A DNA stretch of 64,000 nucleotides from an uncultured Holophagaceae bacterium (GCA_903937385.1 CAIZZF010000019.1:20993-84992); one strand, 5' to 3'; numbered from the stretch's first letter, positions 15,071 through 58,492 are shown. Made by a program: numbers and translations. The notes: generated by a model not told the origin, from the letters alone.

Positions 15071-15200
15071 GTTGTTTTCAAGCAAAAGAGAAATTAGCCA
15101 CCGATGAACACCGATAAAGGCATGATAAAAACAAAAAAATGCTTTTTTTAGCTCTTTCTTTATCAGCTTTTAATCGGTGTTCATCGGTGGCTAAAAAAGC
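15071..15200. repeat. Dispersed palindromic element, family A (GAACACCGAT 10-mer arms)
   Basis: Perfect 22-bp inverted repeat at 15094-15115/15173-15194; inner spacer nearly identical to the copies at 38247 and 55759. Confidence 0.85.
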
Positions 15201-38246: not shown

Positions 38247-38366
38247 GAACCGCAGATGACACCGATGAACACTAAAAAAGGCATGATAAAAACCAATACG
38301 GAAATCTTTTCAGCTCTTTCTTTATCAGCTTTTAATCGGTGTTCATCGGTGTTCATCGGTGGTTAA
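38247..38366. repeat. Dispersed palindromic element, family A copy
   Basis: gaaccgcagatgacaccgatgaacac ... atcggtgttcatcggtgttcatcggtggtt; spacer matches the 15094 copy. Confidence 0.85.
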
Positions 38367-38442: not shown

Positions 38443-38564
38443 TTAAACCACCGATGAACACCGATAAACACCGATAAACACCGATAAAAACATGATAAAA
38501 CAACTGACAAAATCTTATATATGTCTTTTATTATCATATTTTAATCGATATTCATCGATGATAA
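38443..38564. repeat. Dispersed palindromic element, family A copy (degenerate right arm)
   Basis: ccaccgatgaaca followed by ccgataaaca 10-mers; right arm atcgatattcatcgatg. Confidence 0.8.
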
Positions 38565-54813: not shown

Positions 54814-55662
54814 ATGCACCAACCCCCGCACCCCGAGACCTACCGCGACGCCCTCCGCGCCTTCCTGCGCGAAGACTGGGGCACCCAGGACTGGACCACG
54901 GCCGCCGTGCCGGACCGGCCCATGACCGCCCGGGTGGTGGCCAAGGCCGACCTGGTGCTGGCCGGACTTCCCATGGCGCTGGAGGTCTTCCGCATCTCAG
55001 AGCCCGCGCTGGTCATCAGAGCCACGGCCCGGGACGGACAGCGGGTGTCCAGAGGCACCGAGCTGTTCTGCATCGAGGGCTCGAGCCACGGCATCCTGCT
55101 GGCCGAGCGGGTGATGCTGAACCTGCTCCAGCGCCTGTCGGGCACGGCCACCCTCACCCGCCAGTTCGTGGACGCGGTCGAGGGCACCGGCGCCCGGATC
55201 CTCGACACCCGCAAGACCACCCCGGGCCTGAAGCTGCTGGAGAAGTACGCGGTGCGCTGCGGCGGCGGCGTGAACCACCGGCTCACCCTGGGGGATGGCG
55301 TGCTGCTGAAGGAGAACCACCTGGCCGCGGCGGGCGGGGTGCGCGCGGCGGTGGAGGCGGCCCGGCGCGTGGCGCCCAACCTCGTGAAGATCGAAGTGGA
55401 GGCCGAGACCCTGGGCCAGCTCAAGGCCTGCCTGGAGCTGCCCGAGGTGGACGGCGTGCTGCTGGACAACATGAGCCTCGAGCAGCTGCGCGAAGCCGTG
55501 GCCCTGCGCGACCGCAGCGGGCGGCGCCTCTTCCTGGAGGCCAGCGGCAACCTGACCCTGGACCGCGCGCGGGCCGTGGCCGAGACCGGCGTGGACTTCC
55601 TCAGCGTCGGCGCCCTCACCCACAGCGCCCCCGCCGCCGACATCAGCCTTCGGTTCGACTGA
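54814..55662 (+). CDS. nadC: Nicotinate-nucleotide diphosphorylase (quinolinate phosphoribosyltransferase)
   Basis: ERVMLNLLQRLSG, DTRKTTPG, LLDNM, EASGN, SVGALTHS. Confidence 0.96.
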   Translation: MHQPPHPETYRDALRAFLREDWGTQDWTTAAVPDRPMTARVVAKADLVLAGLPMALEVFRISEPALVIRATARDGQRVSRGTELFCIEGSSHGILLAERVMLNLLQRLSGTATLTRQFVDAVEGTGARILDTRKTTPGLKLLEKYAVRCGGGVNHRLTLGDGVLLKENHLAAAGGVRAAVEAARRVAPNLVKIEVEAETLGQLKACLELPEVDGVLLDNMSLEQLREAVALRDRSGRRLFLEASGNLTLDRARAVAETGVDFLSVGALTHSAPAADISLRFD

Positions 55663-55685
55663 AGCGGCTTCCGGGAAGGACAGGG

Positions 55686-56207
55686 GAACCGCAGATGGCG
55701 CAGATGACACCGATGAACGCGGCGAGTCGTCGCCGTGGCAGAGGCGGGGAAAGGCTTGTTAGCCACCGATGAACACCGATGAACACCGATTAAAAGCTGA
55801 TAAAGAAACGGCTGAAAATTCATCCCCCCCGAACAGAACTGATCACCGCCAAGGCGCCAAGAGCGCCAAGAAAGGCATGGCCCCTTGGGCGGGGCCACCA
55901 AGCCCGCACCAACTGGGGCAGCCACGCTGACTGCACGGGTTGGATCCCGGCGGACCCGTGCGGAGTGTGACGGCGCCTCTTGGCGTCCTTGGCGTCTTGG
56001 CGGTGTGCTTTTCATCCCAACCCGCCCGCCGACAGGCCGACATGAGATCTTCCTGGTGATTCTTGGAAGCCCAAAGGGGCGGAGCAAGCCAGCCAAGCTG
56101 GTTGTTTTTCATCCTGCTTTCATCGGTGTTTATCGGTGTTCATCGGTGGCTGATTTGTCCTTTGCTTGAAAAGCACAACTGATGACCATCTGCGTCATCT
56201 GCGGTTC
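55686..56207. repeat. Three-layer nested palindromic repeat element
   Basis: Outer IR 55686-55706/56187-56207 (20/21), middle IR 55761-55790/56122-56151 (29/30), inner IR 55844-55871/55978-56005 (25/28). Confidence 0.88.
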
Positions 56208-56260
56208 TGATCTTGCTCTTGAACGGATGGCGCTGAGTATCGCAATAATCAGAGAACGGC

Positions 56261-58492
56261 TTGCGAAACTTTGGAGGTTCTGTGCGCGGACTTGGATGGG
56301 GAATCGCCCTAGCGGCGCTGGTAGGGGCGGGTCCGGCAGTGGCCCAGGCGCCGCGGCCCATGACGTTCATGGACGTGATGGAGATGCGCAGCGTCGGTGG
56401 TGGGCAGCTCTCTCCGGACGGGGCGCGGGTGGTCTACACCGTCAGCATCCCCCACTGGAAGACCGGGAAGGCCTACACCGATCTCTTCATGGCGGATGCG
56501 GTCACGGGCGCCAGCCGCCAGCTGACCTTCACCCGGGAGAAGAGCGAGACCAGCCCCCAGTGGTCACCGGACGGCCGGCGCTTCGGCTTCCTCAGTGACC
56601 GGGAGGGCAGCCAGCAGGTCTACCTGATGGCCGTGGATGGCGGTGAGGCCCGGAAACTCACGGAGGCCAAGGACGGGGTCCACGCCTTCGCCTTCAGCAG
56701 GGATGGCAAGGTCCTGATCTTCAGCGCGGGCAAGCCCGAGGAGCGGCAGCTCTCGCTGGTTGACCTGCGCTCTGAGGAGCTGACCGTCACGGCCCTGCCC
56801 AAGCACGCCACCTCGGTGCGCGACTTCGCCCTCGCCGAGGACGGCGGCCGCGTCTTCTACACCAGCCCGGACCGCCAGGACAAGGATGACCTGAAGCGCA
56901 AGGAGAAGAAGTTCGACGTGCGCATCGCCGATCCCGAGCAGTCACCCGTGCACCTCTGGTCCCTGGACCTGAAGACCCACGCGGAGCGGCGCTGGACCGA
57001 GGGCGCGGGCTTCACCGTGGCTGCCTTCCAGCTCGCCAAGAATGGCGGCTGGGCCTCCTTCCGGGCGCTGCCCTCGGCCCGCCAGCGGGGCGACATCACC
57101 CAGGAGGAGGCCAGCCTGCACCTGCTGGACCTGGGCAGCGGCAAGGAGCGGCTCGTGCTGGAGAAGAACGCCCGCTTCGCGGCCTTCTCGCCGGATGGCC
57201 AGTGGCTGGCCTACGCTGCGCCGGAGCGCTTCGAGCGCCTGCGCAATGACAAGCTGTGGGTGGTGGCCACTGCCGGAGGCGAGCCGAGGAACCTCCTCGC
57301 TGGCAAGGACCTGAACGTCAGCAGCGCGACCTGGAGCGAGGACGCGAAGACCCTCTACTTCCCCATGGCCGCCGGGGTGGACCAGCAGCTCTATGCCCTG
57401 TCCACTGCAGACGGCACCCTGACCCAGCTCACACGTGAACCGGGCGTGGTCGCCGGCGGCTACAGCGCCGAGGCCAAGGCTTTCCTGCTGAGCTTCAGCC
57501 AGCCGCGGAAGCCCCTGGACTACTACGTCGCCCGGCCCGGCACCGTGGGGCAGGCGGCCAGCTGGGTGAAGGTCTCCGACGGCAATCCCCAGGTGGCGAA
57601 GCTGGCCCTGGGTGAGACCGAGGCCGTCCACTGGAAGGCCAAGGACGGCACGACCATCGAGGGCCTGCTCATCAAGCCCCTGGGCTACGAGCAGGGCAAG
57701 CGCTATCCGCTCATCGTGCAGCTGCACGGGGGCCCCGCCGCCGCGGACATGCGGGGCTTCCAGGGCCGCTATGTCACCTACCCGCACCTCTACGCCGCTG
57801 CAGGCTACGCGGTGCTGCAGCCCAACTACCGGGGTTCGACCAACTACGGCGAGGCCTTCACCCGGCAGATCGGCGGCAACTTCATGCGGCTCTCCTACGG
57901 CGACATCCTGAGCGGTGTGGACCACCTCATCGCCGCAGGCCTCGCCGATCCGGACCGCCTGGGCATGATGGGCTGGAGCGCCGGCGGCCACCTGTCCAGC
58001 TGGACCCTCACCCAGACCGACCGCTTCAAGGCCATCAGCACCGGTGCCGGCGCCGTGAACTGGATCTCGATGTACGCGGAGTCCGATGTCCAGAGCGTCC
58101 GCGAGTTCTACCTGGGCGGGCGGCCCTACGACGCCTGGGAGAACTTCATGAACGAGTCGGCCCTGAGGTTCGTCAAGAACGCCAAGACCCCCACCCTCAT
58201 CCACGTGGGCGAGGCGGACCAGCGCGTGCCCAAGCCCCAGAGTGACGAGCTCTACATGGCCCTCAAGAAGCTCGGCGTGCCCGTGGAGTACATCGTCTAT
58301 CCCGGCATGCCCCACGGCCTCACAGAGCCGCGCTATCAGCTGGTGAAGATGGTCGCCGAGTTCAACTGGTTCGAGAAGTGGATCAAGGGCAAGCAGGACT
58401 GGTTCGACTGGAAGACCCTGCTCGATACCCTGCCCGCCGATCCCGACGCCAAGCCCGAGACCACCGCCGCCGCCGCGACCAAGGGCCGCTGA
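56261..58492 (+). CDS. Exported S9 family peptidase (acylaminoacyl-peptidase/DPP-like) with beta-propeller
   Basis: Signal peptide; SPQWSPDG repeats; LHGGP, PNYRGS, GWSAGG, DQRVP, GMPHG; start uncertain. Confidence 0.92.
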   Translation: MRNFGGSVRGLGWGIALAALVGAGPAVAQAPRPMTFMDVMEMRSVGGGQLSPDGARVVYTVSIPHWKTGKAYTDLFMADAVTGASRQLTFTREKSETSPQWSPDGRRFGFLSDREGSQQVYLMAVDGGEARKLTEAKDGVHAFAFSRDGKVLIFSAGKPEERQLSLVDLRSEELTVTALPKHATSVRDFALAEDGGRVFYTSPDRQDKDDLKRKEKKFDVRIADPEQSPVHLWSLDLKTHAERRWTEGAGFTVAAFQLAKNGGWASFRALPSARQRGDITQEEASLHLLDLGSGKERLVLEKNARFAAFSPDGQWLAYAAPERFERLRNDKLWVVATAGGEPRNLLAGKDLNVSSATWSEDAKTLYFPMAAGVDQQLYALSTADGTLTQLTREPGVVAGGYSAEAKAFLLSFSQPRKPLDYYVARPGTVGQAASWVKVSDGNPQVAKLALGETEAVHWKAKDGTTIEGLLIKPLGYEQGKRYPLIVQLHGGPAAADMRGFQGRYVTYPHLYAAAGYAVLQPNYRGSTNYGEAFTRQIGGNFMRLSYGDILSGVDHLIAAGLADPDRLGMMGWSAGGHLSSWTLTQTDRFKAISTGAGAVNWISMYAESDVQSVREFYLGGRPYDAWENFMNESALRFVKNAKTPTLIHVGEADQRVPKPQSDELYMALKKLGVPVEYIVYPGMPHGLTEPRYQLVKMVAEFNWFEKWIKGKQDWFDWKTLLDTLPADPDAKPETTAAAATKGR

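Follow-up and report, generated by a model that had tools for sequence, protein, structure and literature searches.

The spacer between nadC and a downstream S9 peptidase gene in this Geothrix genome (G000, 3.68 Mb on 30 contigs) is occupied by a nest of gene-less shells, composed of three families of tandem-unit arms, the remnant of a MITE and a structured core. The three families, here called A, B and C, are dispersed, and the same arms enclose GxxExxY genes elsewhere. A single spacer holds three arm families that each have a gene-bearing counterpart. The best overall explanation, and one that we consider probable, is that these are nested gene-less shells that would have been spread by a cognate predicted nuclease. 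The locus and the genus tie the PDDEXK_3 protein family to paired tandem-repeat arrays that genome papers have left unexplained since 2009 or earlier (PMC2700814). The stretch of DNA analyzed, referred to as the window, is 64,000 nucleotides long (C19:20993-84992), and positions without a contig name are counted from its first letter.

Layers of the nadC-S9 spacer

A repeat search of the window found three concentric inverted repeats in the spacer, where the original prediction had placed them. The outer arms (55686-55706 and 56187-56207) are 21 nt long and 95% identical (20/21), and the inner arms (55844-55871 and 55978-56005) are 28 nt long and 89% identical (25/28); both match counts reproduce the predicted ones. 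The middle arms (55761-55807 and 56105-56151) are also present, at 83% over 47 nt, but their 10-mer core matches at 28/30, not at the 29/30 claimed. Every arm is built from tandem 8-10-nt units, which read CGCAGATGR in family C (outer), CACCGATGAA in family A (middle) and CRCVAAGR in family B (inner), the B units at this locus being CGCCAAGR. Two layers exist beyond these three, a degenerate IS1595-type MITE end and a GC-rich structured core. From the outside in, the order is a C hairpin (9-nt units), an A hairpin (10-nt units), the decayed MITE end, a B hairpin (8-9-nt units) and the core.

The upstream flank is nadC, encoding quinolinate phosphoribosyltransferase (ORF at 54814-55662, plus strand; Pfam QRPTase_C/N, E 7e-59), with its stop codon at 55660-55662. 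The inserted block begins with a leader (55663-55685) that carries the small palindrome CTTCCGGGAAG and is absent from G004, the closest genome. The left C arm, recognized by the repeat search and from family copies, consists of GAACC and two CGCAGATGR units. The spacer between the C and A arms (55707-55758) is homologous to a copy at C15:123839-123964 and includes an orphan A unit (55707-55718) and the mini-hairpin GGCGAGTCGTCGCC (55721-55734). The left A arm, annotated at 55759-55807, is TAGC followed by three CACCGATGAA-type units and TAAAAGCTGATAAAGAA. Next is the left leader of the inner unit, CGGCTGAAAATTCATCC..CAGAACTGATCAC (55808-55843), which is common to the G004 copies and is possibly the remnant of the MITE left end. 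The two inner arms, both from the repeat search, hold three CGCCAAGR units on the left and three YCTTGGCG units on the right, and enclose the core (55872-55977). To the right of the inner arms is a tail (56006-56075) with TGCTTTTCATCCCAACCC.. and then ATCTTCCTGGTGATTC, a decayed B-type right arm; homologues of the tail occur on C21 and C15 and in G004 (L031, L059-L062). The degenerate right end of the IS1595-type MITE, GGGGCGGAGCAAGCCAGCCAAGCTGG, was placed at 56076-56101 by alignment and precedes the right A arm, which the repeat search delimited. A short module, CTTGAAAAGCACAACTGATGAC (56165-56186), bears a resemblance, and only that, to the left end of the genome's IS1595-family IS (CTTGATTACC..CTCAGCC), and similar modules recur adjoining A hairpins. 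The right C arm, also from the repeat search, is made of two CATCTGCGY units and GGTTC. It is followed by the trailer of the block (56208-56245), with homology to the G004 spacer resuming near 56246. The downstream flank is the S9 prolyl-oligopeptidase-family gene (56282-58492, plus strand; Pfam Peptidase_S9, E 1e-45), which likely starts at the GTG at 56282, after a GGAGG at 56273-56277. The edges of the block are AT-rich, at a GC fraction of 0.45-0.47 versus 0.67 for the genome.

The middle layer had been described as a second copy of the element at 15071-15200 of the window, split by about 300 bp. This is the case: the two share 93% identity over 45 and 44 nt on both sides, and the halves in the spacer are parted by 297 nt. 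Both of the small hairpins described in the inner loop are also present, GGCCCC..GGGGCC at 55879-55898 and GCACGGGT..ACCCGTGC at 55934-55962. The core that contains them, core Q, is a copy of about 105 nt of a GC-rich, multi-hairpin core of about 190 nt, from which an internal deletion has removed about 80 nt (alignment and consensus fold of eight copies). Its distribution is patchy and multi-copy, with seven copies in G000 and 14 in G079, and its covariation is modest. The core is non-coding. We found no conserved ORF in the loop or core, where the frames are open only from high GC and copies differ by indels of lengths not divisible by three. In Rfam, the full-length core copies searched (four) had only chance hairpin matches, far below the gathering scores. 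We agree that the window holds no mobilizing gene.

Arm families and their GxxExxY genes

The arms of all three layers recur elsewhere, with families A, B and C each being multi-copy in the genome and in the genus and each also standing alone. Family A is found at about 35 loci in G000, mostly as hairpins of about 100 bp with a conserved interior, and the number of units can be unequal between its arms (1 versus 8; 6 versus 1). A 17-mer of family A, CACCGATGAACACCGAT, has 66 matches in G000 and its reversed control has 0; thus, the inverted-repeat pattern is not due to chance. The same 17-mer has 0-6 matches in 40 other genomes of the family, a strong expansion of A in G000. A 27-mer of family A was found on at least 120 metagenome contigs, and public contigs with a family A end are labeled as Geothrix or Holophagaceae. 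An exact 25-nt family A end was also seen on one contig of an Opitutia MAG (L028, JBAXWQ010000253.1), which could be a binning error or a transfer. Family B has at least 26 paired hairpins in G000, with a minimal form of about 90 bp (GATCAC-(CRCVAAGR)2-3, a loop of 17-29 nt and the complement), and family C has about 12 loci, the smallest of which are 60-bp hairpins. G000 also carries other families built in this way from 7-10-nt units, and eight or more unit families coexist. Among 48 elements considered for gene context, the flanking genes are convergent for 18, in tandem for 28 and divergent for two. Pairs of A arms 0.7-3 kb apart with an IS or gene between them were not found in G000, and a self-BLAST of the genome gave few long multi-copy repeats.

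Several related repeats were seen along the way. In addition to the copy at 15071-15200, family A hairpins in the window are found at 38247-38366 and 38443-38564; the latter two lie next to each other and are oppositely oriented, and one of them has a lone C-type unit, GAACCGCAGATG, immediately before it. Two paralogous 2.2-kb segments carry hairpins of different arm families, with CGCCAAG versus CGCAGAG units, at the same intergenic position (C30:637-752 versus C27:2186-2331). A 330-bp repeat occurs in five copies at 91-97% identity (C1:159725-160057, C3:59367-59710, C4:126956-127296, C20:90683-91024 and C26:298158-298493) and holds a hairpin with ACCGGTGAGGA 10-mer arms; one copy is beside two A elements. 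A four-helix-bundle gene (Pfam 23S_rRNA_IVP, PF05635) was found between inverted heptamer arrays (GCTGTCA, GGCAGTT, GTCTTCA and others) at L063-L072. G000 has no PF05635 gene, but it does have about ten gene-less hairpins with GCTGTCA arms, e.g., at C27:16646-16891, C5:216882-216995 and C8:162846-163021. Clusters of A units were seen in G050 and G042. The G050 cluster, considered as possible element ends, proved to be hairpins between genes of the rml operon. In that cluster (L051, C1:26500-30800 of G050), A-type hairpins lie in the rfbA, rfbC, rfbD and rfbB spacers, together with a small toxin-antitoxin-like insert.

RAYTs (TnpA-REP) are Y1 HUH transposases that partner REP/REPIN elements. 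A search for them (Pfam Y1_Tnp, PF01797) gave no matches in G000, and the positive controls were matched. PF01797 is present in 4 of 41 Geothrix genomes, none of which are the repeat-rich genomes G000, G004, G013 and G018. The RAYT put forward in the original prediction is therefore absent, both from G000 and from 37/41 congeners. Its other candidate, a GxxExxY gene flanked by the same arms, was found for families A, B and C alike.

The first example is a metagenome contig on which A arms enclose a 127-aa ORF, whose start codon is within an A unit. The ORF matches TIGR04256 (GxxExxY; E 7e-42) and PF13366 (PDDEXK_3; E 6e-41). Among the arm-associated genes, PF13366 was also matched at E 1e-38. 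In G000 there is a single PDDEXK_3 gene, outside of the window at C8:225022-225402. It begins with ATGGGCACCGAT, its start is also inside an A unit, and an A hairpin is located 66 nt past the stop; gene and hairpin are conserved at the orthologous site of G013, the one case checked. Loci at which A arms enclose the gene are L168 and L218, and such arms were found in G084; the link to family A spans G000, another Geothrix genome and metagenome contigs. In G006 (L207), the gene is surrounded by B arms (AACTGATCACCACCAAG.., 35 nt, 94%, 395 nt apart) that carry the AACTGATCAC leader seen in the window. B-type arms also surround the gene at L195 and L202 and were found in G001. C arms surround the gene in G077 (L206; AACCGCAGATGACGCAGATG.., 28 nt, 93%, 369 nt apart), with a further C-type cassette at L208. 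The start codon lies inside an arm unit in both A- and C-type cassettes. A complete cassette is about 0.5 kb, with tandem-unit arms around a GxxExxY gene of about 127 aa.

The GxxExxY gene is found in 37 of 41 Geothrix genomes, in 1-10 copies each, and tandem-unit arms accompany every one of the 43 genes sampled. The proteins group by arm type: identity is 0.65 for proteins that share a type versus 0.47 across types, a difference reached in 0 of 2000 permutations, and for 35 of 43 proteins the nearest neighbor shares the arm type; this test is inflated by orthologous copies. GFxExVY, D74 and E84-x-K86 are invariant in 13 sequences, with the catalytic residues intact. A structure model (pLDDT 90.3) has Cas4, RecB-type and restriction-like nucleases as its nearest folds, with weak Foldseek matches (best E 1e-3). 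A PDB sequence search, PHROGs and PADLOC gave no match for the nuclease. PDDEXK_3, a widespread family, has been listed with unknown function (PMC3424549). We did not find a link between GxxExxY proteins and palindromes in the literature searched, and the nuclease-plus-palindrome cassette apparently has no published description. B- and C-type genes were not found in G000. The B and C copies in G000 are probably orphans, because the genome keeps only an A-type nuclease gene, and the sole gene being of the A type fits with A being the largest and most uniform family. The G004 assembly, which is 85% complete, has A copies, and the only gene found in it is of the G type.

Nesting, IS1595 insertion and turnover

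Nests similar to the one in the nadC-S9 spacer are found throughout these genomes. At six loci or more, an A hairpin has C arms around it; inner hairpins occupy A shells at no fewer than six loci, and B is found inside B in two nests. A strict genome-wide count of nests, made with very stringent seeds, was not informative. The inner cargo is found either way round, and within arms of different types, in G000, G004 and metagenome contigs; in relatives, A shells enclose different arm types. Because orientation and arm type of the cargo vary, many of the nesting events are independent. The junction between the MITE right end and the A right arm is identical in the window, C21, C15, C26 and a G004 locus. 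Since four to five copies carry the same junction, this composite was also copied as a unit, not layer by layer. The proposal that several REPIN/MITE-like families insert into each other is supported, with refinements: nesting does recur, some composites were copied whole, and the REPIN identity falls with the absence of a RAYT.

The MITE layer belongs to the IS1595 type. An intact MITE is located at C26:170932-171166, and the 14 terminal nt of its terminal inverted repeat (TIR), CCTGGTTATCGGCC, are identical to the TIR of an intact IS1595-family IS in G004. The latter encodes Pfam DDE_Tnp_IS1595 and Zn_ribbon_IS1595 domains and has an 8-bp target-site duplication (TSD), AAAAGCTT. G000 has its own IS1595-family IS, 51% identical to the G004 IS, in at least three copies; one is complete (C4:6409-7509), and IS ends are found at four contig termini (C3:1-134, the end of C9, C19:90463-90600 and C27:25382-25519). 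Within the locus, only the inner MITE remnant matches the TIR of an autonomous IS. The ends of the A, B and C layers do not match the IS1595-family TIRs of G000 or G004. A similarity of the B arms to the IS TIR (10 of 16 positions) was weak and was dropped, and loose motif scans for MITE ends returned mostly noise from coding sequence.

Of four IS1595 insertions examined, three (two G000 copies and the G004 copy) are 10-12 nt from an A hairpin. Two 8-bp TSDs were read, AAAGCTTA, which the C19 end and the C3 start share, and AAAAGCTT. The flanks of A hairpins carry AAAAGCTTTT-like sites, and IS1595 targets an AAAGCTT in the flank of the A hairpin. Insertion at such sites is one concrete way for one element to attract the next. 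The IS copy shared by the end of C19 and the start of C3 lies 12 nt from an A hairpin, and the two contigs are probably joined through it. Draft assemblies break at these sites, owing to the repeats together with the IS1595 copies directed at them. Two extra segments in G004 were examined and rejected. One of 1.9 kb beside an A hairpin is an unrelated IS1595 insertion, and the second, of 1.6 kb, consists of ordinary genes.

The nadC and S9 genes adjoin in ten other Geothrix species, where the spacer is far shorter and lacks the block. In G004, in which nadC is 95% identical, the distance from the nadC stop to the GTG start is about 40 nt. Because the spacer is empty in these ten congeners, the block of about 580 bp is a gain in the G000 lineage. 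The empty alleles that the prediction called for thus exist. A partially filled one was not found in the Geothrix genomes or metagenome contigs, and a search for strain-level alleles of the spacer in metagenomes returned 0 matches.

Gains and losses were also seen in a comparison of 36 loci between G000 and G004. Some elements are orthologous and of equal size, and elsewhere the spacer sizes differ. Presence or absence is clean in five cases, in which the genes almost abut in G004; no target-site duplication or defined end could be read in these five filled/empty pairs, whose spacers have diverged. At C17:28740, one A shell holds different cargo in G000 and G004, and at one further locus G004 retains a solo arm only. 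Orthologous A copies decay without compensation. In one orthologous B hairpin, CAC has changed to CGC in several units, in both arms together. A B arm in G004 contains a 42-nt REP-like palindrome that is found in G004 only.

Two sites illustrate the turnover. At C23:7614-7688, a B hairpin block of about 140 bp parts two genes that overlap (ATGA) on C175 of G004, and the start and N-terminus of the downstream gene are new relative to G004; this looks like an insertion inside an operon. A REP-like palindrome of 29-33 nt, TCTCGGTATCGGCGCAGCCGATACCGAGA, has about 15 copies in G000 (e.g., at C15:9779, C25:18789 and C17:36465). The 42-nt palindrome in G004 (L048) is a copy of this type and sits exactly between two B-arm units, where the arm is unbroken in G000.

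Proposed mechanism, alternatives and known systems

We propose that the shells are non-autonomous relatives of the GxxExxY cassettes. The cognate nuclease, linked to them by association, may spread or homogenize them in trans, by cutting the arm arrays or an extruded hairpin, after which copying or gene conversion would follow. The nesting would be explained if hairpin loops and AT-rich flanks were preferred or safe places to land. For one step in such a scheme the type of agent is known, since IS1595-family elements insert at the AAAGCTT found in A flanks. G000 has one nuclease gene and some 35 matching shells, and close species differ by gains, losses and cargo swaps. Any effect on the host would probably be exerted at gene 3′ ends, by an RNA hairpin, processing or termination. 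A broader reading, which we hold only tentatively and lean slightly against, is that tandem-unit palindromes have GxxExxY PD-(D/E)XK proteins as their partners in trans, in a second, nuclease-based partnership of the REPIN-RAYT type. Each protein lineage would read its own 7-10-nt array, and cleavage with copying or conversion would spread and homogenize the shells and swap their cargo, with extruded loops serving as landing sites. If true, landing in extruded loops would yield Russian-doll loci. The PDDEXK_3 family gains a concrete candidate substrate, and annotators have reason to treat AT-rich hairpin islands as selfish repeats, not as regulatory sites.

The main rival reverses the roles, with the hairpins being primary and spread by host replication, repair or recombination, and the nuclease and four-helix-bundle genes, the core and the MITEs being passengers in their loops. 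Loop cargo is indeed varied. Core Q is found inside B-, F-, H- and C-type arms, the IS1595-type MITE is loop cargo as well, and PF05635 genes are found inside heptamer arms in 10/21 congeners, so that the nuclease gene, too, could be a passenger. Families B and C persist as gene-less copies in G000, which lacks their genes, and unequal numbers of arm units are as expected from replication slippage. However, a start codon placed within the arm unit (A- and C-type cassettes), arms on every sampled gene and proteins that cluster by arm type are unexpected for genes that landed at random. We consider this explanation unlikely.

Less probable still is that the nested hairpin was selected for a host role at the RNA level, as a stem-loop at the nadC 3′ end that terminates, insulates or stabilizes the transcript, or as an RNase III site, with the families being convergent or co-opted modules. 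Folding, which had been suggested as a check, did find that the 536-nt stretch is far more stable than its shuffles (−295.9 versus −199 ± 7 kcal/mol for 100 shuffles, z = −13.7). The elements are nearly always at gene ends, with the convergent arrangement far exceeding the divergent one, and the two paralogous spacers carry hairpins of different families at the same position. Small terminator-like sites number four versus 0.9 expected, and one on the plus strand is a small stem followed by a T-run (56087-56103), but the large stems have no long T-run directly after them. Ten congeners also do without the block at this locus, orthologous A copies lose pairing without compensatory change, and hairpins lie inside one operon, the rml genes of G050, where a strong terminator would be polar. 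We found no match in Rfam 15 up to E = 10 in the region, and nothing real in the whole window.

Alternatively, a global regulator or a nucleoid protein could bind the tandem arrays as paired sites on the DNA, as has been proposed in Geobacter metallireducens. Classes 1-3 of its paired "global regulator binding sites" (Aklujkar et al., 2009; PMC2700814) consist of 4-5 tandem octa-, nona- or heptanucleotide units, paired on the other strand at a variable distance (PMC2700814). They number 8-24 pairs per genome, are all intergenic, and have transposons near class 1 (PMC2700814). They were read as regulator or IHF/HU sites, and neither a nuclease gene nor nesting was reported (PMC2700814). By the paper's description, their architecture agrees with that of the Geothrix arrays, with tandem runs of 7-9-nt units on the two strands, a distance between them that varies, many copies and IS inserted nearby; their unit sequences differ. 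The 10-bp period of the A units would also place sites on one face of the helix. However, many regulators would be needed for the eight or more coexisting unit families, whose periods are 7-10 nt, the loci come and go between close species, and the elements are at gene 3′ ends, not at promoters. We regard a binding-site function as very improbable.

The least credible explanation, that every layer is an ordinary MITE mobilized by the DDE transposase of the G000 IS1595-family IS, or that the palindrome grew by local inverted duplication, has in its favor the three or more copies of that IS and the one inner layer whose TIR matches such an IS, but it is largely refuted for the A, B and C layers, whose arm ends are unlike the IS TIRs, which have no flanking 8-bp TSDs (in diverged spacers), and whose arms are dispersed, multi-locus family sequences, not copies of local flanks.

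Among known systems, IS1595-derived MITEs thus account for one inner layer of the locus, of which the window keeps the decayed right end only, and differ from the A, B and C layers in their ends. Homing-endonuclease genes are nuclease genes that promote their own copying into related sites, and the intervening sequences of 23S rRNA can hold a small ORF within a long stem. A cassette nuclease gene that promoted its own copying in this way would behave like a homing gene, and the Geothrix PF05635 gene between inverted heptamer arrays resembles the small gene in the long-stem loop of the intervening sequences. The Geothrix cassettes differ in lying between protein-coding genes, not in rRNA. In its behavior, the locus is closest to REP/REPIN-RAYT systems and the BIME mosaics of E. 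coli (PMC3116915; PMC2817692). These share short, multi-copy, intergenic hairpin palindromes at gene 3′ ends that form mosaics, and a single- or low-copy gene between or beside the same repeats. It is not a REPIN system, because a RAYT is absent: there is no Y1 transposase, and the associated gene is instead a GxxExxY gene of the PD-(D/E)XK fold. The arms also differ, being tandem 7-10-nt units in variable number, whereas REPs are 20-40 nt with a conserved head, and many arm families are found in one genus, each with its own protein lineage.
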